Below are positions 3,697 through 41,389 of a stretch of DNA of 64,000 nt, piece after piece. A program made the position numbers and the translations under genes. Numbering within the stretch: position 1 is the stretch's first letter; each line of letters starts with the position of its first letter. Origin of the DNA: a phage; sequence record PZ540767.1. The stretch is one strand, 5' to 3'. The notes under the pieces were generated by a model. That model did no database searches and was not told the origin of the DNA. It worked only from the letters and a program-made list of their open reading frames with translations.

Positions 3697-4578
3697 ATGA
3701 AACTGAAATTATCAGATGTGTTAGAGAACCTGGCAGCGGGTGAGTTATCTCACCTCTCCTTGTTTGAGAATGGGGCGGATATCCCATTTGAAACTTTTAA
3801 TAAACGACTGTTGCCCATTATCAATGCTGGTTTAACTGATATCCATATGCGTTTCTTTGTGAAACAGAAAGAGGTATGGCTCAAGCATTGTTGTGGTGAT
3901 ACTAAACTGGTACTGGATAGAAAGAATGCAGCAAGTGCTCACAGACTTCGTGGCAATGCTTTTATTCAGGATTGTGATGATCCCTTTAAGGATGATGTGG
4001 TAGAGATCCTCTCTATCTATAACCGGGATGGGCAACAATACCCGCTGAACATGGACACAGACCACACCCAGCCGAGAGGCTGTGGGTGTGGGCGTGGACA
4101 TGGATGCAACTGTACACCACCAAACTCATGGGCACGATATGACAGCACATTGGACTACCCGGCAACCATCACCACCAGAACCCCCTATGGCAGCTATGGT
4201 AGTTGTGGGCCTGGCTTGCCTGTGCTGTATACTCCTGCTGTTAATGTGATCAGACTGCCGGAGAATATGCCTTCTGGTTTCATGAAGGTATTCTATAAAG
4301 CTGCACCTGCTCGTATTCCTAAGCTGGAGGATAACGGGGTAACTACCTATGATCGTATCGATCTGGATTTACCCTTTACTTATCTGGATGCACTGGTTTA
4401 CTACATCTCATCCCGTCTGACTGCACCTACCAATGGTGGGCTGCAAGCAGGGACTAATGAGACAACCCAGTACTACAATAAGTATCTGTCTGCTTGTGCA
4501 GTGCTTACTGATCAAGGGGTGGATGTTTCTACTCAGGGATCTGGTTACAGCAGGTTTGCTAAGTCAGACTTCAGATAA
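3697..4578 (+). CDS. hypothetical protein with Cys/Gly/His-rich motif
   Basis: 293 aa; AAGGA RBS; contains HTQPRGCGCGRGHGCNC; followed by terminator. Confidence 0.6.
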   Translation: MKLKLSDVLENLAAGELSHLSLFENGADIPFETFNKRLLPIINAGLTDIHMRFFVKQKEVWLKHCCGDTKLVLDRKNAASAHRLRGNAFIQDCDDPFKDDVVEILSIYNRDGQQYPLNMDTDHTQPRGCGCGRGHGCNCTPPNSWARYDSTLDYPATITTRTPYGSYGSCGPGLPVLYTPAVNVIRLPENMPSGFMKVFYKAAPARIPKLEDNGVTTYDRIDLDLPFTYLDALVYYISSRLTAPTNGGLQAGTNETTQYYNKYLSACAVLTDQGVDVSTQGSGYSRFAKSDFR

Positions 4579-5798: not shown

Positions 5799-5875
5799 TG
5801 GCTGGAGCATCTGGATTCGAACCAGAGAATGTCGGTATCAAAGACCGATGCCTTAACCTACTTGGCTATGCTCCA
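5799..5875 (-). tRNA. tRNA-Gln (anticodon TTG)
   Basis: Cloverleaf folded by eye on reverse complement: acceptor TGGAGCA/TGCTCCA, anticodon loop CTTTGAT, T-loop TTCGAAT, encoded CCA. Confidence 0.7.
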
Positions 5876-5878
5876 ATT

Positions 5879-5968
5879 TGGTGGAAGGTGAAGGATTCGA
5901 ACCTTCGGGCGCATCTCTGCACCTCCTGATTTCAAGTCAGGTACAATCGGCCTCTCTGACAACCTTCC
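5879..5968 (-). tRNA. tRNA-Ser (anticodon TGA), long variable arm
   Basis: Acceptor GGAAGGT/ACCTTCC, anticodon stem CCTGA/TCAGG with loop CTTGAAA, long variable arm, T-loop TTCGAAT, encoded CCA. Confidence 0.7.
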
Positions 5969-5974
5969 TAAATT

Positions 5975-6061
5975 TGGTGGGGGAAGATGGAGTTGAACCA
6001 CCCGAGCTTCTTAGGCAACAGATTTACAGTCTGTCCCGCTACCTCTACGGTCTATTCCCCC
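5975..6061 (-). tRNA. tRNA-Tyr (anticodon GTA), long variable arm
   Basis: Acceptor GGGGGAA/TTCCCCC, anticodon stem ACAGA/TCTGT with loop CTGTAAA, T-loop TTCAACT, encoded CCA. Confidence 0.6.
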
Positions 6062-6066
6062 GAATT

Positions 6067-6143
6067 TGGTCACCACGTAAGGATTCGAACCTTAGACACC
6101 TTGCTCCCAAAGCAAGTGCTCTACCAGACTGAGCTACGCAGTG
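6067..6143 (-). tRNA. tRNA-Pro (anticodon TGG)
   Basis: D-arm TAGCTCAGTCTGGTAGAGC, anticodon stem CTTGC/GCAAG with loop TTTGGGA, T-loop TTCGAAT, encoded CCA. Confidence 0.7.
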
Positions 6144-6209
6144 TAATTAGCCCTCTACTGTCGCCATCCAGTAATCCAGTTGGAATCGAACCAACACAGA
6201 GGGGTTATT

Positions 6210-6284
6210 TGGCGATGGGACTGGGACTCGAACCCAGCTGTCATAGATTAACAGTCTACCGCTTCACCGTTTAGCTATCCCATC
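6210..6284 (-). tRNA. tRNA-Asn (anticodon GTT)
   Basis: Acceptor GATGGGA/TCCCATC, anticodon loop CTGTTAA, T-arm CTGGG-TTCGAGT-CCCAG, encoded CCA. Confidence 0.6.
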
Positions 6285-7336: not shown

Positions 7337-9598
7337 ATGAACGATGAAGATCAGAGCGTAAGTGTAGCTTACCATGATCAACCTGTAGGCATCGAGACAG
7401 GATGGAAGAATCCACCTACTCTATCGATTCTTAAACAGGATCTGACCAATGCTACGCCTATTCATGATACTCAGACCGCTAAGATAGCGGAGTGGGAACG
7501 CTACCGTAAAGGTAAGACGACTACCCCTAAAGGTGAGGGGCAATCTAAAATTCAGCCTAAGCTTATTCGTAAGCAGGCTGAGTGGCGTTATGCTGCTTTG
7601 TCTGAGCCATTCTTATCTACCCCGGACTTATACAACATTAACCCAGTAACTTGGGAGGATGTTCCTGGTGCCAGACAAAACAGTTTAATTCTTAATAACC
7701 AATTCCAGACACAAATTGATCGTGTTGCTTTCATTGATGCCTACGTTCGTAGTGCAGTAGATGATGGTACGATCATTGTTCGTGTTGGCTGGGATTTTGA
7801 AGAAAGAGAAGTTCCTAAACAGGAGCCTGTATACTCTTTCTCAGTTGCTGCTGACATGATGGATATCTATCAAAAGATGGCACAGGTTGAGCAGGAAAAT
7901 CCTGTATACCTCTTAAATTATCCTCAGCAATTACAGGATGGTTACGAGATTCTCAAGAGTACAGGGATCCCTTATGCACTGACTCCTATTGGTGTAGCTA
8001 ACACTACCGAGATGAAGACAATTAAGAACTGTCCTACGGTAGAAGTCTGTGATTTAAATAACCTGTATGTAGACCCTTCTTGTAAGGGTGACCTGGATAA
8101 CGCTAAGTTTGTTATCTATTCTTTTGAGACGTCCCTTGCAGAACTTAAAGCAGATGGGCGATACAAGAACCTGGAGCAGATCAATGTCTCGAACAGTTCA
8201 CCTCTCACTGAGCAAAACTATGAAGCACCTAATGACCCCAACTTCCAGCCGGAGGGTAAACCTCGAAAAAGAATTGTTGCTTATGAGTATTGGGGATATT
8301 GGGATACTGATAATTCTGGTTTGTTACGCCCTATTGTAGCAACCTGGGTTAACGGTATATTAATCCGTCTGGAAGAGAACCCTTTCCCGGACAAGAAGAT
8401 TCCGTTTGTCTCAGTTCCTTACCTGCCTGTAAAAAACTCTATCTATGGCGAACCAGATGCAGAACTGCTAAAGGATAACCAGGATATCATCGGTGCAGTA
8501 ACCAGGGGTATGATTGACTTGCTTGGTAAGTCAGCTAACTCTCAAACTGGTTTTGCTAAGAACATGCTGGATGAAACTAACAAGCGTAAATTCCAACGTG
8601 GTGATGATTATGAGTTCAACCCTGGTACTGATCCCCGTGTAGGTATTCATACCCACACCTTCCCTGAGATCCCACAGTCTGCTCAGTTTATGCTTCAGCT
8701 TATGAACACTGATGCTGAATCATTGACTGGGGTTAAATCATTCTCTGGGGCAGAAGGTATTTCTGGTGCTGGTTTAGGTCAAACAGCTGCTGGTGTCCGT
8801 GGTGCATTGGATGCTGCTTCTAAACGTGAGCTTGGTATCCTTCGTCGTTTATCCAATGGCCTCATTAAGATTGGTCGTAAGATCATTGCAATGAATGCTG
8901 AGTTCCTGGATGAGGAAACTGTAGTACGTATTACTGAAGATGAGTTTGTGCCTATTCGTCGTGATGACTTACCAGGTAACTATGATCTTCGTCTTACCAT
9001 CTCTACAGCTGAGGATGATCAGGCTAAAGCTCAACAGCTTGCTTTCATGCTGCAAACCAGTGCTCAGACACTTGGCCCTGACTTCAGTAAGTTGTTCCTT
9101 GCTGAAATTGCACGCCTGAACAAGATGCCTGATATGGTTCGTAAGATTGAGCAGTATCAGCCTCAACCTGATCCGATGCAGCAGATGATGCAGCAGAAAC
9201 AACTTGAACTGCTTCAAGCTCAGATCAACCTTACTAATGCCCAAGCTATGGCTGAAGGTAGTAAAGGTCAGCTTAACCAAGTTAAGCAGGGTACTGAGAT
9301 GGCTAAAGCTGGTCAGATCCAATCCCAGACTGACAAGAATAGTCTCGACTTCTTGCAGACTCAGAATGGTGTCAAACATCAACAGGCTCTGGAGATGGAA
9401 CAAGTTAAGGGTGATACCTTACTTGCTGCCCAAGCTCTTAAACAGCAAGGCACTCTGGATCAGATTCAGGCACAGCATCAATCTGGTTTACTCCAGCAAC
9501 TTGCTAATACCAGGCTGAACCATAATAGCCAGCTTCAGTTGTTAAGAGCACAGAGGGATTTAAATCCTCCTACTCAAAGCACTGGTAATAACTCGTAA
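7337..9598 (+). CDS. portal protein (N4 gp59-like by size and synteny)
   Basis: 753 aa; first gene of the head module, two genes upstream of the capsid gene; Gln-rich C-terminus. Confidence 0.7.
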   Translation: MNDEDQSVSVAYHDQPVGIETGWKNPPTLSILKQDLTNATPIHDTQTAKIAEWERYRKGKTTTPKGEGQSKIQPKLIRKQAEWRYAALSEPFLSTPDLYNINPVTWEDVPGARQNSLILNNQFQTQIDRVAFIDAYVRSAVDDGTIIVRVGWDFEEREVPKQEPVYSFSVAADMMDIYQKMAQVEQENPVYLLNYPQQLQDGYEILKSTGIPYALTPIGVANTTEMKTIKNCPTVEVCDLNNLYVDPSCKGDLDNAKFVIYSFETSLAELKADGRYKNLEQINVSNSSPLTEQNYEAPNDPNFQPEGKPRKRIVAYEYWGYWDTDNSGLLRPIVATWVNGILIRLEENPFPDKKIPFVSVPYLPVKNSIYGEPDAELLKDNQDIIGAVTRGMIDLLGKSANSQTGFAKNMLDETNKRKFQRGDDYEFNPGTDPRVGIHTHTFPEIPQSAQFMLQLMNTDAESLTGVKSFSGAEGISGAGLGQTAAGVRGALDAASKRELGILRRLSNGLIKIGRKIIAMNAEFLDEETVVRITEDEFVPIRRDDLPGNYDLRLTISTAEDDQAKAQQLAFMLQTSAQTLGPDFSKLFLAEIARLNKMPDMVRKIEQYQPQPDPMQQMMQQKQLELLQAQINLTNAQAMAEGSKGQLNQVKQGTEMAKAGQIQSQTDKNSLDFLQTQNGVKHQQALEMEQVKGDTLLAAQALKQQGTLDQIQAQHQSGLLQQLANTRLNHNSQLQLLRAQRDLNPPTQSTGNNS

Positions 9599-9985: not shown

Positions 9986-11146
9986 ATGAGTAATTCAAAT
10001 GAGCAACTAGATCCTAATGACATCTTCTCCATGTCTGAGGATGAATTAAGCAAATTTGATCCTGAACAAGCAGCAGCGGAAGCTGATGCCCTGGCTACAG
10101 CTGAAGAAACTCCTGAAGAACATCAGGAAGAAACCCCTGAGACTGAAGAAGAAACAGAGCAGCCAGAGGAAGAAACCACCACTGAAACTGATCCTGAGCA
10201 GCCGGAAGAAACTTCTGATAATCCAGAAGACACAGATCCTAAAGCACAGCCTCAGCAGACTGATCCTAACTCCAGCAACGAAAACGCACCGGACTACAAA
10301 GCGTTATACGAGCAAATTGTTGGTAAGCCTTTCAAGGCTAACGGTCGTGACCTCACCATTAAATCTGCCGATGAAGCTGTTAAGCTCATGCAGATGGGTG
10401 CCAACTACCATGAGAAGATGGCTGCTCTGAAACCAGTTCGCCGTGTTGCTCAGATGCTTCAGCAAGCCAATGCAATGGATGAATCCACTGTGGCTTTCCT
10501 TCTGGATCTTCATAATAAGAAACCAGAAGCAATTGCAAAGCTCGTCAAGGACAGCGGTATTGATCTGTATGAGTTCGATGTAGCTCAAGCAGATAACTAT
10601 CAAACCAGTTATCAAGCTCCAACTGATGTTCAGATGCAGCTTAATGACACCATTGAAACATTAGCTACTCAACCTGGTTTCCAGGAAATGTTCACTGGTA
10701 TTGCTCAAAGCTGGGATGATGTAAGTCAGAAATTCATTACTGAAAATCCAGGTATTCTGGGTGTGCTTCAGGAAATGAATGCTCGTGGTGAATATCAGCA
10801 GATCATGGATGAAGTTAGTCGTCGTCGGTTGTTCCAACCAGAACTGGCTGCACAACCAATGCTTCAGTTATTCCGTGATACTGAAGTACGTTTACGTGAA
10901 GCTGGCCTTTTAAAAGCTACTGCTACCCCTGAACAAATTCAGCAGGTACAGCAAGCTCAAGCTCCAGCTGTTGCTACTACTACCCAGCTTAAACAGGGCA
11001 CTGCCTCTCAAACTGCTCAAGCACGTCGTGCAGCAGCTGCACCTCGTCAAGCTCCACAAACCAGTCAACGTAAATTAACTCCTGAAGATATCTTTTCCCT
11101 TTCTCCAGAAGAATTTGCTAAGATTGACCCAAGCAAATTTAATTAA
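9986..11146 (+). CDS. putative scaffolding protein (highly acidic N-terminal region)
   Basis: 386 aa; long E/T/P-rich acidic stretch, helical remainder; directly upstream of capsid gene. Confidence 0.5.
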   Translation: MSNSNEQLDPNDIFSMSEDELSKFDPEQAAAEADALATAEETPEEHQEETPETEEETEQPEEETTTETDPEQPEETSDNPEDTDPKAQPQQTDPNSSNENAPDYKALYEQIVGKPFKANGRDLTIKSADEAVKLMQMGANYHEKMAALKPVRRVAQMLQQANAMDESTVAFLLDLHNKKPEAIAKLVKDSGIDLYEFDVAQADNYQTSYQAPTDVQMQLNDTIETLATQPGFQEMFTGIAQSWDDVSQKFITENPGILGVLQEMNARGEYQQIMDEVSRRRLFQPELAAQPMLQLFRDTEVRLREAGLLKATATPEQIQQVQQAQAPAVATTTQLKQGTASQTAQARRAAAAPRQAPQTSQRKLTPEDIFSLSPEEFAKIDPSKFN

Positions 11147-11160
11147 GAGGTTACTGACCT

Positions 11161-12333
11161 ATGGTTATGCAATATAAGGCTCCTGCCCAAGGTAAACCGT
11201 CTAGCATTGGCCCGCAGATTAATACTGCGTATTACCAGCGTAAGGCGATGGAAGATGCTCAGAAAGAGCAATACTTTACTCAGCTGGCTTCTGCTAAAGC
11301 TATTCCGTCTAACTACGGTAAAAAGCTGAAGATGTTCCATTACCTGCCACTGCTTGATGATCGTAACATTAACGATCAGGGTATCGATGCAACTGGTGCT
11401 AAAATCGCTAATGGTAACCTGTATGGTTCCAGCCGTGATATCGGTACTATCCCGGACAAATTCCCTGTACTGGGTGAAAACGGTGGTCGTGTTAACCGTG
11501 TTGGTACTACTCGTATTGAACTGGAAGGTTCTTTCGAGAAGTTCGGTTTCTTCATTGAGTACACCCGTGACTCTCTGAACTTCGATACCGATGCTGAACT
11601 ACTCCAGCATATCAACCGTGAGATCATGATTGCTGCATCTGACATGAACGAAGATGCTCTGCAAATCGACCTGATCAACAACGCTGGTACTATCGTCTAT
11701 GCAGGCGATGCCAACTCTCGTGCTGAACTGGGCCAGGATGACGTCCTGTCTTACAGTAACTTCATGAAGCTGGCTATGGCTCTGGATAAGGCTGATACGC
11801 CGAAGAAAACCACCATCCTGTCGGGTACTCGTAATATCGATACTCGTGTAGTCCCAGCTGCTCGCTATCTGTTCTGTGGCCCTGAACTGCGTCCTACCCT
11901 GGAAGCAATGAAGAACCTGCACGATCAGCCAGCATTCATCTCTGCTGAACACTACGCTGCTGGTACTACTCTGGCTAACGGTGAAGTCGGTTCAGTAGGT
12001 CAGTTCCGTCTGATCGAAAACCAGAAGATGATGAAGTGGTCTGGTGGCGGTGCTACCTTGACTGGTGGTGATGAGTCTGTGTATTACAACGATGGCGAGA
12101 AGTACGATGTATTCCCTCTGCTGTGCGTTGGTGATGACTCCTTCTCTACTATCACCTTCCAGACTTCTGGTAACCGTGTGAAGTTCGAGATCAACAGCCG
12201 CAAACCAGGTGAGAACATCGACCGTACTGACCCGTATGGCGAGACTGGCTTCATCTCTATGCGCTGGTTCTATGGCTTCATGGCTCAACGTCCAGAACGC
12301 ATTGGTCTGATCATGACCACTGCTAAGATGTAA
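11161..12333 (+). CDS. major capsid protein (N4 gp56-like by size and synteny)
   Basis: 390 aa; AGAGG RBS; followed by the strongest terminator in the window, as expected for a highly expressed capsid gene. Confidence 0.7.
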   Translation: MVMQYKAPAQGKPSSIGPQINTAYYQRKAMEDAQKEQYFTQLASAKAIPSNYGKKLKMFHYLPLLDDRNINDQGIDATGAKIANGNLYGSSRDIGTIPDKFPVLGENGGRVNRVGTTRIELEGSFEKFGFFIEYTRDSLNFDTDAELLQHINREIMIAASDMNEDALQIDLINNAGTIVYAGDANSRAELGQDDVLSYSNFMKLAMALDKADTPKKTTILSGTRNIDTRVVPAARYLFCGPELRPTLEAMKNLHDQPAFISAEHYAAGTTLANGEVGSVGQFRLIENQKMMKWSGGGATLTGGDESVYYNDGEKYDVFPLLCVGDDSFSTITFQTSGNRVKFEINSRKPGENIDRTDPYGETGFISMRWFYGFMAQRPERIGLIMTTAKM

Positions 12334-12370
12334 TACTGGTTTATTAAATCAGTTTGCATTAAGCTTAAAG

Positions 12371-12394
12371 CCGGGGAATTCTCCCCGGTTTTTT
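12371..12394 (+). terminator. rho-independent terminator after capsid gene
   Basis: CCGGGGA-ATTC-TCCCCGG hairpin followed by TTTTTT. Confidence 0.8.
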
Positions 12395-12416: not shown

Positions 12417-12959
12417 ATGTCACAGTACACTGAACAAGATCGTGAATTATTGGAAGCTCAAGCTAACCAACTGGGTGTAGATTTCCACCCTAATATCAGC
12501 TCTGAAAAACTGGCTGCACGTATTGCAGAAGTTATGGAAGGGCAAGAACCCCAAGAAAAAGAACGCCCTGTTAAAGGGGAAACCAAAGAACAACGTCGTC
12601 AGCGTAAGCATAAAGAAGCTATGGCTCTGGTTCGTTGTCTCATCGTCTGTAATGACCCAAATAAACGTGAGTGGCCTGGTGAATGGTTAGGTGTATCCAA
12701 TGGTGCTGGCGTCCAAGTTCGTAAATTGGTTCCGTATAACCAACCTGATAAACCATTCCACTTACCACGTATCATGGTAAACATGCTTCGTGAAAAACAG
12801 GTTCAGATCTTTGCTTCTAAACCTGGTAAATATGGCACTACTATTCGAGTGCCTAAATCTATTCCAGCCTATACCATTACTGAGCTGCCTCCACTGACCC
12901 AAGCAGAGCTGGATGAATTGGCGCTTAGTCAGCTGCAACGTGGTGCTCTGGACGACTAA
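12417..12959 (+). CDS. hypothetical virion-module protein
   Basis: 180 aa; AGGTAGG RBS; located between capsid and structural genes. Confidence 0.5.
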   Translation: MSQYTEQDRELLEAQANQLGVDFHPNISSEKLAARIAEVMEGQEPQEKERPVKGETKEQRRQRKHKEAMALVRCLIVCNDPNKREWPGEWLGVSNGAGVQVRKLVPYNQPDKPFHLPRIMVNMLREKQVQIFASKPGKYGTTIRVPKSIPAYTITELPPLTQAELDELALSQLQRGALDD

Positions 12960-12968
12960 GGATAAACC

Positions 12969-14198
12969 ATGGCCGATATCACTATTGATCAAGTAGTAGC
13001 TAAAGATCTTCACCTTGAGGATCTGACTACTATTGACCTTCAGGGATCTGGCGTGTGGGATAAGATGCTGCGTAATATGCGTGTTCAACTCAACGATCAG
13101 TTTGAGAAGAATCGCATCACTGGCCCTACTTATGGGCAAGTATACGCAGCTACTTATGAGTCTACTCTTCAAGCTGCTATCACTTTACTTCTGGCTAAAG
13201 AACGTCAGGCATTAGAGATTAAGCAGCTTGAATTGCAGAACCAACTCACTCAAGCTCAGATTGATCAAATCCATGACCAGATGCAGAAGACGCCTTATGA
13301 GATCGAACAGATTAAGGCACAGACAGAGAATATCAAAACTGAGACTGCACAGACGCAGTACAATATTGATCATATTCTCCCACTTCAGGCTACTGGTTTA
13401 GAACTTGAAAACCAGACTCGTGAGTATAATCTCAACACTGTACTGCCTACTCAGGTAGCTCAGACCGAAGCTCAGACTTCACTGACTAAATCTCAGGAAG
13501 AACAGATCCGTGCTGAGATGCAGAAAGTACCATATGAGATTGAAGTACTTCAGTCCCAGGTGGATGAGTCTAAAATCAAGGTTCTGCAAGAGCAATATAA
13601 CCTCGATAACCTCATGCCTGCTCAGCTGGGTCAAATCAATGCTCAGACTGCTGGTGTGGTTAAAGAGACTGAACTTAAGGACTATCAACTGGTTAATCTG
13701 TACCCAGCACAGCTTGCAGGTACATTGGCCCAGACTGAGAATGTCCAACAAGATACTGCTCTCAAAGAGTATCAGGTACAGTTCCTCTACCCTGCTCAAT
13801 TAGCTCAGGCTAATAAGCAGCTTGAGTTAACTGAAGCTCAGATTGCTGTACAAAATAAGCAACTTGATCTACTTCAGGAACAGGTTAACCAGGCTAAAGC
13901 TCAGACTGATTACTATGCTCAGAAGGTTGTTACTGAGAAAGCTCAGACTGATGCTACAGTGATTGGGGATGGGTCAGTAATTAATACCCAGGTTCAGCTG
14001 ATGAATGCGCAGAAGGATGGGTATAAGCGTAATGCTGAACAGCAAGCTGCTCAGATTATGTCTAATACCTGGAATGTCCGTCGTCAAACTGATGAGGATA
14101 CTTCTGCAAACAGTACCAACTTACTGGATGATGCTACTGTGGGTAAAACCATTCAGACCTTGCTGTCTGGTGTAGGCGTAAATGTTAGCCCGTCCTAA
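12969..14198 (+). CDS. virion protein with internal tandem repeats (Q-rich, coiled-coil-like)
   Basis: 409 aa; repeated units such as YNLDNLMPAQLGQINAQT, LVNLYPAQLAGTLAQT, VQFLYPAQLAQANKQL. Confidence 0.55.
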   Translation: MADITIDQVVAKDLHLEDLTTIDLQGSGVWDKMLRNMRVQLNDQFEKNRITGPTYGQVYAATYESTLQAAITLLLAKERQALEIKQLELQNQLTQAQIDQIHDQMQKTPYEIEQIKAQTENIKTETAQTQYNIDHILPLQATGLELENQTREYNLNTVLPTQVAQTEAQTSLTKSQEEQIRAEMQKVPYEIEVLQSQVDESKIKVLQEQYNLDNLMPAQLGQINAQTAGVVKETELKDYQLVNLYPAQLAGTLAQTENVQQDTALKEYQVQFLYPAQLAQANKQLELTEAQIAVQNKQLDLLQEQVNQAKAQTDYYAQKVVTEKAQTDATVIGDGSVINTQVQLMNAQKDGYKRNAEQQAAQIMSNTWNVRRQTDEDTSANSTNLLDDATVGKTIQTLLSGVGVNVSPS

Positions 14199-14217
14199 TC
14201 GACTGGTATACTATATA

Positions 14218-14240
14218 GGGAGCCTTGTGCTCCCTTTTTT
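14218..14240 (+). terminator. rho-independent terminator
   Basis: GGGAGC-CTTGT-GCTCCC hairpin followed by TTTTTT. Confidence 0.7.
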
Positions 14241-14254
14241 ATTATGAGGTCACC

Positions 14255-17002
14255 ATGGGACTCTTTAGCGGAAAGAAGAAAACGTACCGAGACTTTAGCT
14301 ACTCTCGCCTAATTGAAGATGATTACCTGCCTGATGTTATGGGTCAGGCAGTTACTACGTATGTGCTGGATAAAGATAATACCAAATCACTTACTGATCT
14401 GATGCTGGAATATGGGTGGTCAGCTAACAATGTTAAGTGGGATGCTGCATATCGCTGGGCCAAAAAAGGTAAGTATTTTTATGGCCTCCCTACTACCACT
14501 ACTGTTACTGCTACTGACTTCACTGGTTCAGAGTCCTTAGAAGATGTTCTGCAATCACTCACAGGTCGTACAGATCTTACCTATGTATATAGTAAGTTTG
14601 TGCCTGGGAATTTCAGGCATGGTATGTGGCAGCAACTGATCTCAACTCAAAATTATAATGCCACTACTAATATCCTGGGATCTCTGACTTCATCTTTGGG
14701 CACTACGTGCTGGCTTCATAATGCTACTAACTATTTAACCAGTGAAACCAGGGAAGCTGTAGAAGACACCATGCTGGAGCATTGGGGCTTGTCACCTAAG
14801 AGTGGAGCTACCAATATTCGAAGCCAGGATTTGAATGCTGCTGATACTCCTGATGGGGTTAGTGCCACTGGTTCCAATTATGTCCGTGTGGAGTATGCGT
14901 GTAGCTTTGCTGGGGTAGAACGAATTAAGACCGTGGAAACCACTAAGGTAACCACTACAATTAAAACCCCAGATCCCAATGAGGAAGGTAGCTACACAGA
15001 AGAGACTTCATCTACTTCTTCAGATACCACTACTAACACGACTAACTGGAATGGGGTAACTCTACCTAATAACGTGATCAGTGCAGTGGATGTAGGTACA
15101 GGTACTTCAGAGGTTACTGAAAGTGATCCTGTCGATACGCAAACTACAACTGATGAAACTACTGGGGTAATTACAGAAGTCGTTACAGAGGTCACCAGAG
15201 TTATCACAACAAACACTGTTTCGATCAATGTTATTGCTTACTTCAATATGTCGTTTGGGATCTATGACTACAACCCTGATTCTGAAACCATTGACACTAC
15301 CACTGTGTTGGATGACCGAGATTCTGGGGATTATGATCCTACTGCTCCTCTGGTTCCAAGTGGGGAAGATACCGATGATTCCCCAGATTACTTCATGGTG
15401 TGTTATGAATATACCTCAGGGGGTACTCTCCATATTGGTTACTTTACCTATCAATATGGGTCTGGGAATTATCCTGCATTGGATGGGATCACAGGTACTG
15501 AGGTTGCCGACTTCGGACAACACTTCCCTCGTATGTATTTCCGTCTGGATGGTAAACGCCTCATTTCAGATGAGTACTCACAAACTGAAGGCTATAAGAC
15601 CAGTAAAAAGTTAGGTAATAAGCTGGACTTAGGTTGGTTAGATGTAGGAGAAGAAATTTATAATAGCTTGAGTTCTTTGGGCAAAATCAGAGATGTAATG
15701 ATGATTCTTATGGTTCCTGCCAATACTGAAAATGCTATTGAACAGGAATATCTCTATAACTATTTTCATACCCTCTGTATGTTACGTCCCCAGTACACTG
15801 AAAAAAACTGGACAATCTACTCAACTGAGTCTTCACAATCTGGTTCAGCTACAGTACCCCCATCAGATCTGGATACTTTTGATATGCGTTTAGGGGCTTT
15901 CATGGAGTCCTCTGACACATTTATTGCAACATCAAACCAGATGGACTGCCTGGGGTATGCTCGTATCACAGGCTCAATAGGTAACATTGGTGCCGTGGCT
16001 TCAGGGAGGGGTACAGGTAAGCTTCCCTTTAGATATGAATACAGACAGGATAATCAGCTTAAATACCGTTATGGTGTGAAAGATGTAGATTATCATTACT
16101 ACAGAGTTCAGGTATCCAGCACTCAGTATGATGAAGTCAGGGTGTATAACCTAAGCCACCAGGTTCGTGTAGGCGGTAAACAGGTTAACCGGAGTGGTTC
16201 CAGTGATGAACTCATGGTGCCTTTGGATCATGCTTTCAGAAAGCTGTTTAGTACTCATGAAAGAGAAACATTATATGCAAGGGCTGCTCAGATTTTAATC
16301 TGCACTGAGTATACAGTTAAGACTAAGTGGTATCAGACTAGCATTTTCAAGGCAATTACCGTTGTAATAGCTGTAGCTGTTTCTTGGTGGACTGGGGGAG
16401 CTTCTTTATCCATGATTAGTGTGTTAACTGCTGTAGCAACAACGGCAGCAACAATGATAGCTTTCTCACTATTGAGTAAGTATGTGTTCAGTAAACTGGG
16501 AAGTTGGGCTTCTATTCTGGCTACTGTAGTTGCTGTGGTCGCTGCTGTTTATGGGGGATATCTTGCTTATACAGGAACTACAGGCCCATATAGTTTAACT
16601 GCCCAAAATCTTATGCAGGCATCCAATGTTGCATTTAAAACTGCTGATGCTTCCCTAAAAGGACAGCAAATAGCTATGCAGCAAAAGTTTGGATCTCTTC
16701 AGAAAGAGTTAGAAGAAAAGCAGGAAGTACTACAGCAAGCTCAAGATGAGTTAAACCAGGGTTCTAATACTATTTCTGACTGGATATTCCTACAGGCTAC
16801 AAATGGCTATGTTAACTTAGGTGAAACACCTGATCAGATGATAACCCGTACTTTGAATACAAATATTGGAACACTGGCTTTACAGCTACCTGACGTATAC
16901 CTAAGTCAGGCATTGTCTTTACCTTCACCTGTAGAGATCATGCAGTTTATGCAACAAAAACTGTATACTGTTCCAGATGACGAACTCAATCCACTTACAT
17001 GA
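14255..17002 (+). CDS. large virion protein, candidate ejection/channel protein
   Basis: ATG at 14255 with GAGG RBS (ORF track begins at a TTG at 14225); Thr-rich low-complexity linker; long hydrophobic segments near C-terminus. Confidence 0.6.
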   Translation: MGLFSGKKKTYRDFSYSRLIEDDYLPDVMGQAVTTYVLDKDNTKSLTDLMLEYGWSANNVKWDAAYRWAKKGKYFYGLPTTTTVTATDFTGSESLEDVLQSLTGRTDLTYVYSKFVPGNFRHGMWQQLISTQNYNATTNILGSLTSSLGTTCWLHNATNYLTSETREAVEDTMLEHWGLSPKSGATNIRSQDLNAADTPDGVSATGSNYVRVEYACSFAGVERIKTVETTKVTTTIKTPDPNEEGSYTEETSSTSSDTTTNTTNWNGVTLPNNVISAVDVGTGTSEVTESDPVDTQTTTDETTGVITEVVTEVTRVITTNTVSINVIAYFNMSFGIYDYNPDSETIDTTTVLDDRDSGDYDPTAPLVPSGEDTDDSPDYFMVCYEYTSGGTLHIGYFTYQYGSGNYPALDGITGTEVADFGQHFPRMYFRLDGKRLISDEYSQTEGYKTSKKLGNKLDLGWLDVGEEIYNSLSSLGKIRDVMMILMVPANTENAIEQEYLYNYFHTLCMLRPQYTEKNWTIYSTESSQSGSATVPPSDLDTFDMRLGAFMESSDTFIATSNQMDCLGYARITGSIGNIGAVASGRGTGKLPFRYEYRQDNQLKYRYGVKDVDYHYYRVQVSSTQYDEVRVYNLSHQVRVGGKQVNRSGSSDELMVPLDHAFRKLFSTHERETLYARAAQILICTEYTVKTKWYQTSIFKAITVVIAVAVSWWTGGASLSMISVLTAVATTAATMIAFSLLSKYVFSKLGSWASILATVVAVVAAVYGGYLAYTGTTGPYSLTAQNLMQASNVAFKTADASLKGQQIAMQQKFGSLQKELEEKQEVLQQAQDELNQGSNTISDWIFLQATNGYVNLGETPDQMITRTLNTNIGTLALQLPDVYLSQALSLPSPVEIMQFMQQKLYTVPDDELNPLT

Positions 17003-17010
17003 GGTGACTA

Positions 17011-17436
17011 ATGGCTGGATTATCGATGTATCCAAGTCTGTGGGATCAGGGGTCTATGTCCCCATCTCTAGACTCTCTGAGTTCTGGTTTTACCAACTCA
17101 GCAAATACTTTTAACAATACGGCCCTTACTGGTTCAGGTGGTTCAGGTAGTTTCCTGGATAGTATCCTGGGAGGCTCTGGTGAAATGTCTGGTTTGCAGA
17201 TGGGCCAGCTTGGTCTGGGGGGTGTAACCAGTTTGCTTAATGGTTATCTTGGTTTCCAGAACCTGGGCCTTGCTAAGAAACAATACCAGTCTCAGCTTGA
17301 CCAGTTTAATAAGCAGTGGGATGCCAACAAGAAGTTAACCAATGCTTCTCTGGCAGACCGTCAGGCTGCTCGTGTTGCAAGTAACCCTAATGCATATCAG
17401 TCTGTTGATGACTATATGAAAAAATATGGGATCTAA
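17011..17436 (+). CDS. Gly/Ser-rich virion protein
   Basis: 141 aa; GAGG RBS; low-complexity G/S/L-rich composition. Confidence 0.5.
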   Translation: MAGLSMYPSLWDQGSMSPSLDSLSSGFTNSANTFNNTALTGSGGSGSFLDSILGGSGEMSGLQMGQLGLGGVTSLLNGYLGFQNLGLAKKQYQSQLDQFNKQWDANKKLTNASLADRQAARVASNPNAYQSVDDYMKKYGI

Positions 17437-17439
17437 ACC

Positions 17440-18516
17440 ATGGCTATTAGACTGCAACAAATTGCTGCACCTAACTTTGCTGGTTCTAACCAATTACTGC
17501 TGGCAGCAAACCAGCAGATTGGTAATGCTCTCCAGGGGCTACAAGGCACCCTGGGGCAGTATCGTGATGAAGTAGTACGCCGTAATACAGCTCAGGCTGT
17601 AGGACTGCTTACTGGGGCTACAGATGCTAATGATCTGGCCCAGCGTCAACAGCAAGTAGCACAGTTGGTTCAGCAAGGGGATATTGACCCCACTCGTGTA
17701 TCTGAAGTGGCAGCAACCATGCCAGATACTTTGTTAGGACGTCAGACTAATCAGCTAAAGCTGAACCAGATTCAGACTGCACAGCATGATGCACCATTAA
17801 TGGGTGCTTATATGCAAGCTGTTATGTCTGGGGATCAGAATGCAGCTAAAGGTATTTTGTCGCAATTCCAGGGGGATGCTTCAGATGCTCTGAAGTTTGC
17901 CTCTGATTGGGATATCAAAAACCAGCAGTTGAATCTTCAACGGTCTGAACTGGCACAGCGTCAAGCTCAGTTTGCTGCAACTCAGGCAGCAGCTAAGGCA
18001 AGAGCCGGGCAGAGTAATGCACTGCTTAAAGCCTTACCTGGTTTGCTTAACACAGGTAATGATATTCAGGGGAAGGCTGAAGCCAGGGATTTACAGGCTA
18101 ATGCTCAGGATGCTCAACAACGTGTTGCTATGGATCCTATAAACAACCCTAAGCTTAATGTTGCTGGGTGGGCTGATGCTAACAGTGATGTTTGGTTTAG
18201 GGGCTGGGGAAGACAGGCAGACTCTGACAGAATTTTTAATGCTCTGAAGGATCAACCAGCTTTTAAAGCACTTAATCCTCAACAGCAGATAAATATCCTA
18301 GACGGTGCCCTTGCTAATGAAAACTCCCGCGAAGATAAGGGAAATGTTTCTACTGTAAATGCTGCTACTAAGTATCTGACTGATGCAACGAAGCGCTTAA
18401 ATACCCTGAAGATTACTTCACGGCAAGCAGAGGATGCAAAAGATCAGCAATCTGTTATGCAAGAGCAAAGGGATCGTTTAAATAAGCTGCTTCTGCCCTT
18501 ACTTTTCCAACAGTAA
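17440..18516 (+). CDS. virion protein (Gln/Ala-rich)
   Basis: 358 aa; immediately upstream of the giant polymerase gene. Confidence 0.5.
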   Translation: MAIRLQQIAAPNFAGSNQLLLAANQQIGNALQGLQGTLGQYRDEVVRRNTAQAVGLLTGATDANDLAQRQQQVAQLVQQGDIDPTRVSEVAATMPDTLLGRQTNQLKLNQIQTAQHDAPLMGAYMQAVMSGDQNAAKGILSQFQGDASDALKFASDWDIKNQQLNLQRSELAQRQAQFAATQAAAKARAGQSNALLKALPGLLNTGNDIQGKAEARDLQANAQDAQQRVAMDPINNPKLNVAGWADANSDVWFRGWGRQADSDRIFNALKDQPAFKALNPQQQINILDGALANENSREDKGNVSTVNAATKYLTDATKRLNTLKITSRQAEDAKDQQSVMQEQRDRLNKLLLPLLFQQ

Positions 18517-18560
18517 TGAGGTTACAATCTGGGTACTCCACAATACTAAGGAATACTCAG

Positions 18561-21500
18561 ATGGCTGGTAACTCATCTCCTCTGGACAAGTTTCTTGTCC
18601 CACAACAGGTAACAGGTCAGGAAGCTGCTCAGGCACTTCCTGCACCTACCCAACCAACTATCGCCCAGCGTGTGAATGATGCTTCTACTCGTATCCTGAA
18701 TAACCTCACAGGACAGGGTATGTATCCTACAGAAGAAGGCGAGATTGCTCGACTCAAACGAATTAATAACGAACAGTCGGCATATGCTAAAGAAGTAGCT
18801 GCAAAAGATTCAGATTACGGTTGGTCTTCTACCAACTTCTTAGATCCTGAAACGTCTTCATTGACTGATCGTACAGCTTCTACCTTTGTTAACTATGGCA
18901 AAGCTCTTACTGATGCTGTTAATGGTCTTGCAGGCAAAACAGATAAGACTTTCAAAACACTGGGTAATGTGCTGGATCAGGCTTCTATTCCTAACGATGC
19001 ACTGGATGCTTATCGTCGTGTGCAAGCTGGTAAAGGCACCGAAGCTGATAATGCCCTGTTAGATCGTCAGGGTGCCTGGTGGACACAGCCTATTGAAGTA
19101 AATCAATATGGTGTACCAGAGATGGGTAACCAGACTCTTCGTCAACGTCTGGATGCTATCAACGAACGTCAGAAAACCCAAAACCAGAGTAGCTATGACA
19201 ATCTTGAGAAACTAGCTAACCCTGTTCAAATGCAGCAAGCTGCTGCTGATATTGAGAAATCAATTGAAGGTAAATCAGGACTTGATAAATTTGCTGCTGG
19301 TTTAGCTGCTATTGCTCGTAACCCTGGTGCTGCTGGTCAGACTATGGTGGAGTCTGCTCCATACATGGTTGGTGGTATCCCGGGTATGCTTGCTTCCTCT
19401 GCTATGCAGGGTGGCTCAGTATTGTCTCAGTATCTGGATACCCAACGTAAAGCTTCTGATGGTCAGATCCCTACAGCTAAAGATGTAGCTATCGGTACTG
19501 GTTTGGGTGTTGTTGATGGTGCTCTGAACTTTGCAGAAAGTATCATTAACCGTACTGCTATGCTTCCAGGATCTAAAGTATTACCTGCCGGAGTTGCTGA
19601 TCGTCTGGTGAACGCAGCACAGCGCATCGCACCACGCAGCTCTACGGCTGCTGCTGCTCTTGCGCGTGTGACTGCTCCTACCCTTGACCTTGCTAAGAAT
19701 GCCTTAACTGAAGGTCTGGTATCTGGTGCTCAAAACCAGATTGAGGAGAACTATGCGAAGGGTAAAAATGAATGGGATACCAAAGGTAATGATGTTGCTT
19801 TCTTCCAGGGGATTGCTGCTGCTACTGGTTTTGGTGCTCCTCGTGCTGCACTTAGTACTGCTGGTGAAGTAGCTAATACTGCTGCTCAGGCTATGCAGAA
19901 ACGTACTGAAGCACAAGATCCTGTAGGCCAAGCTGCTCGTAATACCACCCCAGAAGACTTAATGAATCCACAGTCAGAAGGATATAACCCAGCTGCTGCA
20001 ATTCGTCGTGCTGGTATGGAGTGGACTCGTAACACTGATGCTACTACTGATGAACAAAAGGCTGAGATTCAATCTCAGGCTCAGTCAGCTATGGATGCTG
20101 CACAGAATGATCACCAGAATAACCTGGATATGATTAACCAGAGGGCTACTGCTGAACGTACTCTTGCTGACGCTGGTAAGTTTATTCCTGCTATTCAGGA
20201 GAGACTGGATCAACTTAGTAATGATCCTAATGCAGATCCTGATGCTGTTAATCAGTTACAAACCATTCTGGCTCAACAGACTGAAGCTCGTGATGCTGCA
20301 CAGCAACAACTGGATGCTATGCCTTCTCAGGAGGAACTGGCACAGTCTGCTACCCGTTCTGCTGAAGTACTGGATCAGGCTAAGTCTGAGTTTGGTAAGT
20401 TCTCGTCAGCTACTGGTATGAATACCAATACAGCTAAACCAGAGAACCCAACAGCTTCTGACATTATCAGCCACCCAATGTCTTATACCAATGAAGACCT
20501 GCAAGAGTTTGTGCGTAATGCTCCTGCTAATGCTACCCCTGCTGAATTGGGTACGCTTCGTGCATTAGCTGATGCCAAAGTTGCAGAGAATGCTGTTAAG
20601 ACTGGTTCTAAGGTTAATAGTGAGATCTTCAAATCCACTTCTAATAACCTGTCACTGGGTGATTACCAACAGGGTATTAACACTGCTGTACAAGCTGGTG
20701 ATACTAACCGTATCCAATCCCTGATGACTGGTATCAACAACTTTGAAACTTCCCATACTGCTAAAGCAGATATTGCTCAACAGTACCTTAATGAAGCTAA
20801 ACAGAATGGTAAGTCTTACCAGATCCTGAAAACTTCTAATGGCTGGGAGTTAAATACTGGCAAACGTCTGGATGCTAAAGCACAGGCTAAGAATGGTGGC
20901 TTTACTATCCACAAAGGCTCTACTGGTCTGGTTAACAATATTGTTAATGAGGCCAAAGCTATTACAGCCACTCGTCAGTATATGGAAGGCATTGCTACCC
21001 CATCTACTAACCAGAATGTGACTGGCTCGACTGAGCAAGTAGCAAGCCCGGAGGCGCAGCCCGAGGGTGCAGCTACTGTAGCAGGAGAGACAGGAGCACA
21101 AGAACAACAAGCACAACCAACAATCAGCCCACTGACCACACGAGATATTCGTGCAATGGATCAGGCAACGCTGGAAAAGGTTATGGCTACTACTCAGCAG
21201 GCTATGTCTTCTGACACTAATCCTGTACTGGCTCGTAACCTGGATGCACTTGACCGTGAGTGGACTCGCCGTGCTGATGTGGCTACTAACCAGAATCGTG
21301 GTGTTGATGCTCCTCACCGTAAACTGGATGACTCCTTTAAGCCTAAAGCTCAGGAGAATGAGATCCAGCGTTCACAGGCTGAGACTACTACTCAAACTGA
21401 GCACACCCAGGCTGACATTGACAATGAGTCTACTGGTTCAGAATCTCAACAAACTGCCCCAGTTAACGTAGATGATGTTGTTACCAACACTGATACTTTG

Positions 21501-24500
21501 ACTGAGACTCAACAAGATAATGTAGCTCATGGTGCTCTGAGTATCTTTGGTAAAGTTGGTGAGTCCCTGAAAGCTCTGCGTGAGAAAGCTTTGGCTGAAC
21601 CTAAAGGCTTACAGAACCTTGTGCTTACTGGTTTCAACCAGCGAGTTCGTCCAGGTTTTGGTAGCCCACTGGTAGCAGTGAAAGACTTTATCAATACTCT
21701 GAAAACTGCTGTGGATACTGGTAGCTTCACTGAAGTTAACCGTTTCCTGAAACAGCATATCAGTGAGTCGAAAGCTGAAGGTGCTAAACAGAAAGCTCTG
21801 CTGAAACAGTTTGTGGAATTCCATGATCACATCACAGCTAACCTGGATAACATCATCCGTACTAAAGCCCCTGAGTATCGTTATCAGGACTTTGCTCAGT
21901 TTATCTTGGATGAGAATGGTAACTTTGACTCCAATACTAAAACTGGTATTGCAGCAGGTATCTTCTCCTGGCTTGGTGAGAATGGGGATAAGATGTTCCT
22001 GAACCAGAGTGAAGTAGCTAAAACTCTGCGTATCAAAGAAGATCAGTTAACTCCACAAGCCATGTCTCGTATGGCTGATATTGGCTATCGCCAAGACTTG
22101 ATCATGTCCCAACTTGGTCAACGTATTTATCAGGCTATGGGCTTTGCTAAACGTGCTGACGTTGATCCTAACCGTGCCAGCAAATTGCAGAATGCTCTGG
22201 GTGCTTATGCTCTCCATGCCATGTATTCCAATGGCTATATGGAACAGTCTTTAATGACTGCTAAAGAGTACTTCGATCTGCAAACCATGGGTCTGGATGA
22301 ACAATCAGCTAAAGAAGCTGCACAAGCTTTCCAGAATGACTTTGGTGTTTCCCCTAACGATGCCAAGCACAAGATTGTGTTTAGCCGTCCTGCACGTAAC
22401 TTTGATGCAGAAGGTAAACCAGTAGCTATTGAAGCTATCTCTGACATTAAGAATGGAATGAAAGATACCCGTTCTCTCATGTCTAAGCTGTTCGGTTATG
22501 ATCCTGCTGTACGTGAGGTTCTGACCACTAAGCCTGCTGGTTTCAAACAGAAAGTCTTCGGTAAAATGAATCGTGAAGTTCCTTCTGTTTTGGCTGCTCG
22601 TATCAGCAAAGCAATGCAATATGACTACACCATTGATCAGGGTGTAGTGAATGCTATGCGTACTATGTCCACTGTAGATAATGCTGCTCTGCAACATATC
22701 TTTGGTGTACGTACTGATGCTGATGTGCCCAATGAAATGGAGATCTTCAAGAAAGGACGTGAAGCCAAGAATGCTGATATCCAACGTTCTATGGAAATGG
22801 GTTTAGACTTTGCTAACCGTAGGGGTACTAACCCATTCTGGATGCCTATGGAAGTCTGGACTAACCAACGTATTGGTGATCTGGCTTCAGAGTTCAACCC
22901 ACAGGGTTCCAAAGTACACCGTGCTATGGGTGGCTTGAGTGCTCACCAGGTAGAGATTTCTGTAGCCCGTAATGCTCCTGTGCTGGACGCAGATGGTAAG
23001 CCTACTCAGTATGGCCTGTTCCTTGTATCCCTGGCTCAGGGTATGGAAGAAGCTCCTGTAATTGGTGCTGATGGTAAGAAACTGAAGTCTGTTGATAAGC
23101 AGACCTATGCTACCTTCTTACCTGCTTTCCAGAATTACCTGCGTAAACCAGAGAACATTAAGGCTGTACGTGCTATGCAGAAAGTGATCGCTGGTTCAGC
23201 TACTACTGCTGATACCAACGTCATTAAGAATGCTGTGGCTGAGTATGGTATGAATGGTCAGTCTTTTGCTGCCCTGCATAACCTGGCTCAGTATGCTACT
23301 GCTCTGGAATCTGGTAAGTCTTCTGTTAAGCTGCTGGCTCAAATGGAATCGGACGGTGTTACTAACGGCCCTATCCTGACTAACATCCTGAATGGCTCTG
23401 CTGACTTCGATCTACTGAAGCGTGGTGGTATTTATCGTGAAGGTGACAATATTACCAACATGCCTACTTATCGTGAGTTGGGTGGTCAGGATTACTACGA
23501 GCTGCTGGGTGATGCTATGCGTCAGCATTGGGCTGATTACAAAACCAATGCACCTGCTAGTCAGCAAGGTCAGATTCAGGCTCTGGAATATTTCTCTACT
23601 GGTTATGGTGCTCGTTCTAAGGCCAAGACTCTGGCTACCCCATTCAACTACTCTGCTGGTATTCCAGCACTGAAAGCTGCTATGGGCCGAGCTACTGTAG
23701 AGGATGTTTACTCTAAGATTGGTTCCCTGATCCCACTGGCTAAAAGCAATAACAAAGCAGACTTTGCCAAGGCTTATGCTGAGGTGAGTAAAAACCTTTC
23801 TGTACTCCTGGGTCAGAAAGTAAATCTGCCACGTACTGCTGATGGTCTGGTTAAGTTCAGCCTTAACCCGGCTCAAACTAAACGCATCATTGATGTGGAT
23901 TCTCAGACTCGCGGTGTTGCTACAGAGACTGCTGTTAATGAGGTTGCTGCTGACTTCATTGCATCTCGTGATGCTAATACCAGTCTGGTTAACACAACCT
24001 TTACCCTGGCTAACCTTCGCTACAATGCTGCTAAAGCTGCACTGCTGAAGAAGCGTATTGCTGAGGGTAAAATCCCTGTGGATGCTAAAGGTGCTCCATT
24101 GGAAGGACTCACTCAGGCAGATCTGGATAAGCTATCCCGCATGATTCCTAACATGCCTTCTGCAACTGGTGTTCTGTCTGAGAATACCAAAGCTTCTGGT
24201 TACCCAATGGCTAAGGTGGAGAAAGCTTTTACTGCTAAGTCTCCTGCCACCAGCATTGATATCTACTTCAAAGAAGCTGCTAACCCTAAACCAGCAATGG
24301 ATGCTAATGGGATGCTGCTGAGTCAAGGTCTGGTAGGTGGATACAAATCTACCCAGTCTACTGTGACTGAGACTAAGCTGACTAACCCTGGTGTTGCTAT
24401 GGGTGCTAACGTTACTCAGGGTACTGATGCTGCAATCAGCTCTGATGTAATCAGCAAGATCGAAAGCCAGAACGTGCATGATGCTAACATCCTGTCTCCT

Positions 24501-40509: not shown

Positions 40510-40591
40510 TATACTTACCTCAGTAAAGGGCTATGCTGCCCATTGTTTAAAAAACAGTTATCATGTCTGTATTCATATACAGGAGACTCCC

Positions 40592-41311: not shown

Positions 41312-41389
41312 CGGGTAATTTCGATAGCCTTATAGTAAGATCTTCCATTAAGATTAGGGTAGTGACTTATTTTTGATGGGAGATCTTCT

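Follow-up and report, generated by a model that had tools for sequence, protein, structure and literature searches.

The subject of this study is the gene at positions 12969-14198 of a 64,000-nucleotide (nt) stretch of phage DNA (sequence record PZ540767.1), which we refer to as the window and which makes up most of an N4-like phage genome. These coordinates correspond exactly to one open reading frame (ORF) on the forward strand, encoding a protein of 409 amino acids (aa) and including its stop codon. When the protein was compared with the sequences of the Protein Data Bank (PDB) using phmmer, it matched the DEV gp75 'tail tube' (9BGM, E 6.5e-32), B2 Gp34 (9D83, E 1.3e-24), N4 Gp54 (9LC0, 9YF4, 9YF5 and 9YFT, E 1.8e-15) and the Moo19 'Tail protein' (9D80, E 1.3e-09), and it also matched PHROG 2050, 'virion structural protein' (E 2.7e-58). 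Both ends of the protein align collinearly with DEV gp75, residues 13-217 corresponding to gp75 residues 5-207 and residues 290-403 to gp75 residues 207-320 (87 bits), and the residues that are extra to gp75 all lie in the middle of the protein; residues 14-151 align with residues 51-193 of N4 gp54 (HMMER). A Pfam search returned only sub-threshold noise (DRC7_C, GvpK, RpoY) and no tape-measure domain. The homology over both terminal domains, the conserved position of the gene and the essentially all-helical subunit seen in a low-confidence model are the characters of the tail-tube family and, judged by homology and synteny, the assignment of 12969-14198 as the tail-tube protein gene of Schitoviridae (N4 gp54 / DEV gp75 family) is secure.

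Homologues of this protein form a dodecameric tail tube on the head-to-tail adaptor (DEV, PMC11445570; Moo19 and B2, PMC11654681; N4, PMC13434306), and they were found in virions by mass spectrometry and cryo-electron microscopy (cryo-EM) (PMC11445570, PMC13434306, PMC11654681). One copy of the protein encoded by the following gene, N4 gp53 or DEV gp74, closes the tube (PMC13434306, PMC12892993). The 321-aa DEV gp75 is described as an all-helical tube ~330 Å long, with an outer diameter of 63 Å and an inner diameter of 36 Å, 'like an upside-down portal barrel', in which contact with the adaptor is limited to a helix-turn-helix near the N-terminus; a localized map at 3.1 Å, covering the region of the portal and adaptor, served to build residues 2-157, and residues 158-321, which could not be seen in it, were modelled in a map of the whole tail at low resolution (PMC11445570). 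The structure and role of the family were established in 2024-2026, and the present gene is a longer member, which the Efbeekayvirus records that we examined label 'hypothetical protein' or 'virion structural protein'. A sequence-only reading of the window had proposed a virion protein, which agrees with homologues having been built into the cryo-EM maps of DEV, N4, Moo19 and B2 virions. It had also noted that such proteins are often found in tails and ejection channels as length rulers or flexible connectors. The location stands but neither role does: by homology the protein would be neither a ruler in the tape-measure sense nor a connector, but the wall of the channel itself, a dodecameric tail tube.

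The order of genes from the portal gene to the gene for the virion RNA polymerase (vRNAP) is exactly that of N4 gp59 to gp50 (Table 1), and the same order is found in seven related loci and in a locus encoding a tube homologue of 816 aa (L015). Among isolates, pKP-BM327-1.2, a Klebsiella phage (Schitoviridae, Efbeekayvirus), is the closest; its tube orthologue, annotated 'hypothetical protein', is 95% identical in aa sequence.

Table 1. Coordinates of the tail-tube gene, its parts and the features around it in the window
Feature	Positions	Strand	Remarks
Tail-tube protein gene	12969-14198	+	one ORF, exact fit; N4 gp54 / DEV gp75 homologue
Ribosome-binding site AAGGA	12958-12962	+	6 nt 5′ of the ATG; read from sequence
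Conserved N-terminal domain, aa 1-92	12969-13244	+	nearly invariant across length variants; aligns with N-terminal part of solved tubes; DEV equivalent carries the adaptor-docking helix-turn-helix
Variable modular shaft, aa 93-290	13245-13838	+	seven proline-delimited heptad-periodic segments; all length differences of relatives map here
A-type module core, copy 1, MQKTPYEIE, aa 105-113	13281-13307	+	
B-type motif, copy 1, YNIDHILPLQ, aa 131-140	13359-13388	+	sole N4 gp54 copy aligns here (HMMER, 9lc0)
B-type motif, copy 2, YNLNTVLPTQ, aa 153-162	13425-13454	+	left side of the crossover yielding the 294-aa variant
A-type module core, copy 2, MQKVPYEIE, aa 184-192	13518-13544	+	
B-type motif, copy 3, YNLDNLMPAQ, aa 210-219	13596-13625	+	
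B-type motif, copy 4, YQLVNLYPAQ, aa 239-248	13683-13712	+	29-aa unit absent in the 401-aa compared with the 430-aa variant
B-type motif, copy 5, YQVQFLYPAQ, aa 268-277	13770-13799	+	copy kept by those shorter (255-309 aa) relatives that have a B-type motif
Conserved C-terminal domain, aa 291-409	13839-14195	+	best-conserved stretch against DEV gp75; many invariant columns among length variants
Terminator-like hairpin and T-run between tube and plug genes	14217-14235	+	sequence
Head-to-tail adaptor homologue	3697-4578		
Five-tRNA cluster	5799-6284	-	Gln-UUG, Ser-UGA, Tyr-GUA, Pro-UGG, Asn-GUU
Portal gene	7337-9598		
gp57-like gene, scaffold position	9986-11146	+	386 aa; tblastn with N4 gp57, 4e-35
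Major capsid protein gene	11161-12333		
Terminator-like hairpin after capsid gene	12367-12392	+	sequence
N4 gp55-like gene	12417-12959	+	180 aa, directly 5′ of tube gene; tblastn with N4 gp55, 4.7e-22
Tail-plug gene (N4 gp53 / DEV gp74 homologue)	14255-17002	+	PHROG 2220, E 4.7e-157; tblastn with N4 gp53, 4e-09
gp52-like gene	17011-17436		
358-aa gene in gp51 position	17440-18516		assigned by position
vRNAP gene	18516-29198		3560 aa
Fibre module	40484-44403		
Tail fibre gene	41390-43627	+	mosaic; see text

The motif Y-x-[ILVF]-x-x-[ILVFM]-x-P-x-Q (B-type) is present in five copies, starting at aa 131, 153, 210, 239 and 268, and most of them are trailed by A-Q-T. This bears out the at least five degenerate copies of the sequence-only reading, but not its description of 30-40 aa units spanning the protein: the spacings are irregular (22, 57, 29 and 29 aa), and the repeats are confined to the central ~200 aa. 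A second module type, MQK-x-PYEIE (A-type), occurs at aa 105-113 and 184-192; the arrangement is therefore that of a 79-aa super-repeat, with ~aa 93-171 corresponding to 172-250. Prolines at aa 109, 138, 160, 188, 217, 246 and 275, spaced by 29, 22, 28, 29, 29 and 29 aa, divide the shaft into seven segments, the last of 29+ aa.

Self-comparison of the protein gave its best ungapped diagonals at offsets of 79 (BLOSUM62 score 145) and 29 (score 122), compared to 40.1±5.2 (maximum 55) for shuffles of the whole protein and 42.1±6.7 (maximum 67) for shuffles of the central region. The internal periodicity is thus far above chance and composition, as the earlier reading had anticipated for such a check. 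The coiled-coil character that it proposed is likewise reflected in a hydrophobic periodicity of the central region of 2.39 residues (the 7/3 harmonic; power 130 versus 57±11 for shuffles), with a second peak at 7.06. In composition the shaft is Q/T/E-rich (17% Q) with a net charge of -15, an acidic character as expected of a DNA conduit. An AlphaFold2 (AF2) model based on a 30-sequence alignment contains, at low confidence, helices at aa 29-46, 52-180, 196-327, 338-373 and 388-401, which cover almost all of aa 52-373, and no strands. The repeats exist at the protein level only: Tandem Repeats Finder, run on the DNA with a minimum score of 30, returned zero rows because the units are old and diverged, with 24-52% aa and 41-53% nt identity from unit to unit. 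Near-identical copies able to slip, as in a DNA-level tandem repeat or contingency locus, are not present.

We searched the databases for close relatives and found that the N-terminal ~100 aa and the C-terminal ~130 aa are almost constant, with the number of Y-motif copies varying from 1 to 6 in proteins of 255-452 aa, as the sequence-only reading had suggested it might between strains. One copy is found in variants of 255, 259 and 272 aa, two in those of 294 and 309 aa, three in that of 323 aa, four in those of 366 and 401 aa, five in those of 409 and 430 aa and six in that of 452 aa. The lengths differ by whole modules, gained or lost in register: 22 aa (272 to 294 and 430 to 452 aa), 29 aa (294 to 323 and 401 to 430 aa) and 57+29 aa (323 to 409 and 366 to 452 aa), and the 409- and 430-aa forms differ by three separate insertions of 7 aa. 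In DNA sequence, removing 115 codons from the 409-aa allele gives the 294-aa one, with the junction falling within the P-x-Q-[VL]-A-Q codons common to repeats 2 and 5; this is an in-register crossover at the conserved junction motif.

Seven loci, encoding alleles of 452, 430, 366, 323, 294, 272 and 409 aa, were compared with the window. In all seven the portal protein has 753 aa (99-100% identity) and the capsid protein 390 aa (97-99% identity), the protein in the scaffold position has 386-388 aa, and the gp55-like protein has 180 aa throughout. The plug varies between 904 and 925 aa and falls into allele classes of 72-75%, 86% and 96-97% identity to that of the window. None of the partners in these loci co-varies with tube length, the portal, scaffold-like, capsid, gp55-like, gp52-like and gp51-position proteins all being constant. 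Tail-tube length polymorphism within the genus is apparently undescribed: our literature search, whose reach did not extend to the Structure 2025 N4 paper (the source of 9LC0), turned up no account of repeats, or of a polymorphism in length, in the tail tubes of Schitoviridae.

The same pattern extends to the family. An exhaustive profile-free search identified 1465 representatives at E<=1e-3, 81 of them at E<=1e-30; the best 150 of the 1465 are 144-816 aa long (median 344), and in this set protein length follows the number of shaft prolines (Spearman 0.85). A strong internal repeat was found in 106 of 149 representatives, most commonly with periods of 28, 29, 35, 21, 49 and 36. Spacings between consecutive shaft prolines were 7n or 7n+1 in 344 of 370 cases (93%; 36-58% for control residues), with 22, 29, 35 and 36 dominating; the binomial p is ~1e-151 against an expectation of 2/7, a figure that overstates independence since the sequences are related. 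The consensus around the proline, Y(-7)-x-L(-5)-x-x-[KL]-L-P-x-[EQ]-[LVI]-A-x-L-x-A-Q-T, reproduces the motif noticed in the single protein. The tubes of the DEV-like YH6 (L010, 883-1848) and of LUZ7 (L011, 1501-2466) contain a 28-aa duplication, SAGFQDLLV-x-EQT... (scores 148 and 129 versus ~36±5), and the 480-aa tube of Acinetobacter phage XC38 contains 35-aa repeats with prolines every 28-36 aa; these three tubes have expanded independently. The excerpts consulted from the DEV structure paper do not mention the 28-aa duplication (PMC11445570). The 816-aa homologue (L015, 3950-6400; ENA ERZ27284627 k119_162015), has 57-aa repeats with a self-score of 726 and is encoded in the order scaffold, capsid, 181-aa gene, tube, plug; other representatives have 690-716 aa.

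Among the solved homologues, DEV gp75 (9BGM, 9ZDW; PMC11445570, PMC12892993) is the best match: it belongs to a sheath-less Schitovirus, is encoded between the gp55-like and plug genes, and has an internal repeat of its own (28 aa in the DEV-like YH6 protein, score 148 versus 35±4). Unlike the present protein, with its 409 aa and seven segments of 22-29 aa, it has 321 aa, a single shaft proline and two 28-aa repeats, a difference of ~88 residues in the shaft. N4 gp54 (9LC0, 9YF4, 9YF5, 9YFT; PMC13434306), the family founder, is likewise flanked by gp55 upstream and the gp53 plug downstream and contains exactly one motif copy (QYNLSSMLPQQL; YNLSSMLPQQ), which aligns with the first copy here, but it is only 299 aa long and has no significant long internal repeat. 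Moo19 gp71 (279 aa, 9D80) and B2 gp34 (206 aa, 9D83) form homologous tubes of twelvefold (C12) symmetry below the adaptor (PMC11654681) from much shorter subunits; the alignment of B2 gp34 with our protein is limited to ~80 aa at the N-terminus and ~130 aa at the C-terminal end, and B2 gp34 is without almost the entire modular shaft. Closer to the window, gp019 of FBKp27 (vB_KpP_FBKp27) and the other 272-aa tubes of Efbeekayvirus share the genus-level gene set and gene position (portal 100% and capsid 99% identical), but gp019 has one A-type and one B-type copy rather than two and five and is 137 aa shorter.

Two further comparisons are analogies. As in tape-measure proteins (PMC13585406), the length of a helical repeat protein would be tied to the length of the tail, and gain or loss of repeats would change it; but tape-measure proteins sit inside a tube of many stacked rings of a separate protein, whereas here the repeat protein would itself be the tube, a single ring of 12 chains, and a Pfam search revealed no sequence relationship between the two. 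The barrel of P22-type portals resembles the proposed tube as a twelve-helix channel with heptad-type periodicity, but it would be comparable in form only, being a different protein, located within the capsid and not built as a modular array of repeats.

As judged by gene content, the tail is DEV-like (a bare tube with fibres) rather than N4-like (a tube in a sheath), because tblastn found no homologue of N4 gp64, gp65 (sheath / receptor-binding protein) or gp66 (appendages) in the 64-kb window; in N4, a gp64/gp65 sheath around the tube reaches the plug (PMC13434306). No match to N4 gp58 was found by tblastn in the window, nor to N4 gp51 at E<=1e-3, and a gene of 104 aa is placed between the portal gene and the gp57-like gene. 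Terminator-like hairpins follow the capsid and tube genes, and terminators are annotated at the equivalent places in the FBKp27 record. Speculatively, the two hairpins may step expression down from the capsid to the 12-copy tube and then to the 1-copy plug. The mechanically called plug ORF starts at a TTG (14225) within the second hairpin, and the ATG at 14255 is preceded by GAGG and gives a protein of 915 aa, the length of the orthologues in two related loci (L005 and L006); this ATG is probably the true start.

We also made several observations on genes other than the tube gene. The gp57-like protein has an acidic low-complexity N-terminus and is called 'tail length tape measure protein' by both PHROG 2120 and the FBKp27 record, a label that looks wrong for a podovirus, in which a scaffolding protein is expected between portal and capsid. 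The tail fibre is a mosaic: its first 139 aa are 81% identical to pKP-BM327-1.2 and are followed by an Ala/Ser/Gln-rich stalk and by a C-terminal part of ~470 aa that matches the fibre of E. coli phage Ptacy1537 at 49% identity and carries a GDSL-type motif, CHGDSLTAG. The motif suggests that the C-terminus is an esterase, in contrast to the pectate-lyase spike of FBKp27. In the pKP-BM327-1.2 record (OP413827.1; L013, 1-3495) the fibre region has no annotated coding sequence; the gene appears to cross the start of the circular record, and the receptor-binding protein is thus missing from its public annotation. Finally, four of the five clustered tRNAs are for Gln, Tyr, Pro and Asn, which are signature residues of the tube repeats. 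The idea that phage tRNAs serve these Q/Y/N/P-rich repeats was rejected, as the codon usage of the tube gene gives it no support (CAG 43 versus CAA 18; CCT 5, CCA 3).

Our interpretation, which we hold to be likely, is that the protein is the tail tube of a sheath-less N4-like Klebsiella phage (of the genus Efbeekayvirus type) and that the number of its helical modules sets the length of the tube. By homology, twelve copies would form a hollow α-helical barrel hanging from the head-to-tail adaptor, each chain running essentially once along the tube with the twelve in parallel. The conserved N-terminal ~90 aa would dock on the adaptor, and the conserved C-terminal ~120 aa would form the distal tip, at which a single-copy plug, the product of the next gene, would meet and close the tube. 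The repeats of the sequence-only reading would be the modules of the shaft between them, each segment beginning at a ...Y-x-L-x-x-L-x-P-x-[QE]-[LVI]-A... or ...MQK-x-P-Y-E-I... junction. Since the chain would be laid serially along the axis, module number and size would set the length of the tube, at ~1 nm per heptad, ~3.3 nm per 22-aa unit and ~4.3 nm per 29-aa unit. Insertions would be tolerated only when they keep the helical register, as heptads or as heptad+1 'skips' at a proline junction, and modules would be gained or lost by in-register recombination at the conserved junction motif, giving rise to a polymorphism in tail length between phages that are nearly identical in their remaining virion genes. 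Any length setting would come from the structural subunit's own length, not from a separate measuring protein, and we know of nothing running alongside the tube that would constrain its length.

The rise of an α-helix is ~1.5 Å per residue, and each inserted residue would add up to that amount. A chain of 321 aa folded as a full hairpin would span at most ~240 Å (321 × 1.5 / 2), too short for the ~330 Å tube of DEV, and we infer that the DEV chain is largely serial for this reason. Scaling from DEV (330 Å for 321 aa), the 409-aa protein would be predicted to form a tube of ~420-460 Å, the 272-aa type (that of the type phage FBKp27) one of ~257-280 Å and the 452-aa type one of ~465-525 Å. If length scales in this manner, the tube of the 816-aa 'podovirus' homologue would be near 80-100 nm.

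Several observations weigh against this interpretation. First, both the single-pass topology and the Å-per-residue figure depend on the numbers given in PMC11445570, in which the distal half of the DEV tube was modelled only at low resolution. Second, N4 gp54, with its one motif copy and no significant long repeat, indicates that a tube can do without repeats. Third, tail lengths from negative staining are inconsistent and unusable for calibration (7 nm for nACB1, a relative of XC38, and 'about 100 nm' for HS106). Fourth, structure prediction lends little help: the AF2 monomer is poor (pLDDT 59, pTM 0.38) and its long helix is broken at aa 181-195, suggesting a fold-back, and a Foldseek search of the PDB with this model was uninformative on topology, returning dynein, SMC and Tc-toxin coiled coils at E>0.01 and the DEV tube chains at E ~1. 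Lastly, we found no adaptive reason for the length variation when comparing host strains, fibres and plug alleles. A single host strain yielded both phage pKP-BM327-1.1 (272-aa type) and phage pKP-BM327-1.2 (409 aa); the window and pKP-BM327-1.2 have the same 409-aa tube and fibres common only over the first 139 aa; and, in the seven loci, the plug allele classes do not follow tube length. There is no simple coupling of the receptor-binding protein to tube length among the few genomes compared: FBKp27 has a different spike and fibre set, and HS106 and P184 have differing tail proteins and 272-aa tubes in both cases. In the metagenomic variants ~27 kb separate the fibre module from the tube gene, which places it past the 10-kb flank, and the comparison rests on the other genomes.

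The AF2 break lends itself to an alternative in which the protein is still a tail-tube protein but the extra modules fold back as hairpins, make the wall thicker or stand out from it as a collar or other decoration, leaving tube lengths similar. The break would permit a fold-back and coincides with the start of the second 79-aa super-repeat, and the 7-nm tail seen in negative stain belongs to a relative of XC38, whose tube has 480 aa. We nevertheless regard this alternative as unlikely. In the break region the pLDDT stays under 50, and a prediction made on the monomer is unreliable for an obligate 12-mer, so that the break is probably an artefact of modelling a monomer. Moreover, the indels are quantised to heptads or heptads+1 and in register with the junction motif, a property needed in a continuous barrel but not in an external loop, and the 330 Å length of DEV for 321 aa (PMC11445570) already demands a serial layout.

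Outside the tail tube proper, a long helical repeat protein of variable length resembles a tape-measure-like ruler, and Pectobacterium phage Horatius annotates its homologue as a 'putative internal virion protein', which would make the protein a ruler or an internal or ejection protein that passes through the channel. This is highly improbable given the significant collinear homology to four proteins modelled in cryo-EM density as the wall of a dodecameric tube. The PHROG family is one of virion structural proteins, the genome is that of an N4-like podovirus, and no Pfam match, to a tape-measure domain or otherwise, rises above threshold. Proteins of the ejection class (gp51, gp52 and vRNAP) are encoded by separate genes downstream, the gp52 and vRNAP genes being recognised as homologues and the gp51 gene by its position. 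There is equally little to be said for placing the protein outside the channel, as an external coiled-coil fibre or connector such as a fibre stalk or a whisker: its heptad periodicity and its helical sequence rich in Q, E and T are indeed reminiscent of fibre stalks, but the homology is to tube proteins, the synteny is that of N4, and the fibre module lies elsewhere in the window. Least probable of all is that the length variants are assembly or annotation artefacts (repeats collapsed or expanded in metagenomes), since, although most come from Logan or ENA metagenome assemblies, units only 41-53% identical in nt sequence offer no long exact repeats to collapse, the 409-aa form occurs in the window and a cultured isolate and the 272-aa form in more than 10 cultured isolates, the 294-, 430- and 409-aa classes each comprise several non-identical sequences from different samples, and neither the reading frame nor the register of the modules is lost in any variant.

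Collectively, our results give a function to a gene annotated as 'hypothetical' or 'virion structural protein' in Efbeekayvirus. What may be new is the modular, heptad-quantised and rapidly evolving shaft, together with the within-genus polymorphism in tube length that it implies. The rule suggested for N4-like phages is that tube length equals the sum of heptad-quantised modules in one 12-copy subunit, which would explain why this subunit ranges from ~200 to more than 800 aa. Tentatively, and with slightly more doubt than confidence, we extend this to the proposal that tail length in Schitoviridae is written in the tube subunit as proline-delimited 7n/7n+1 modules, with no separate ruler and with fast in-register evolution. 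If true, tubes would differ ~1.7-fold within the genus (272-452 aa) and ~4-fold across the family (~200-816 aa). The pair pKP-BM327-1.1 and pKP-BM327-1.2, with tubes of 272 and 409 aa and the same listed host strain, represents a natural experiment on adsorption, DNA and vRNAP ejection and capsule penetration, and for phage engineering the modules of 22 and 29 aa, being in register, are an obvious choice of unit with which to make a tail longer or shorter. Should tube length be under selection, for instance to match the depth of the capsule or envelope or the reach of the fibres, host adaptation of therapeutic Klebsiella phages would have a new axis, and one that is easy to engineer.

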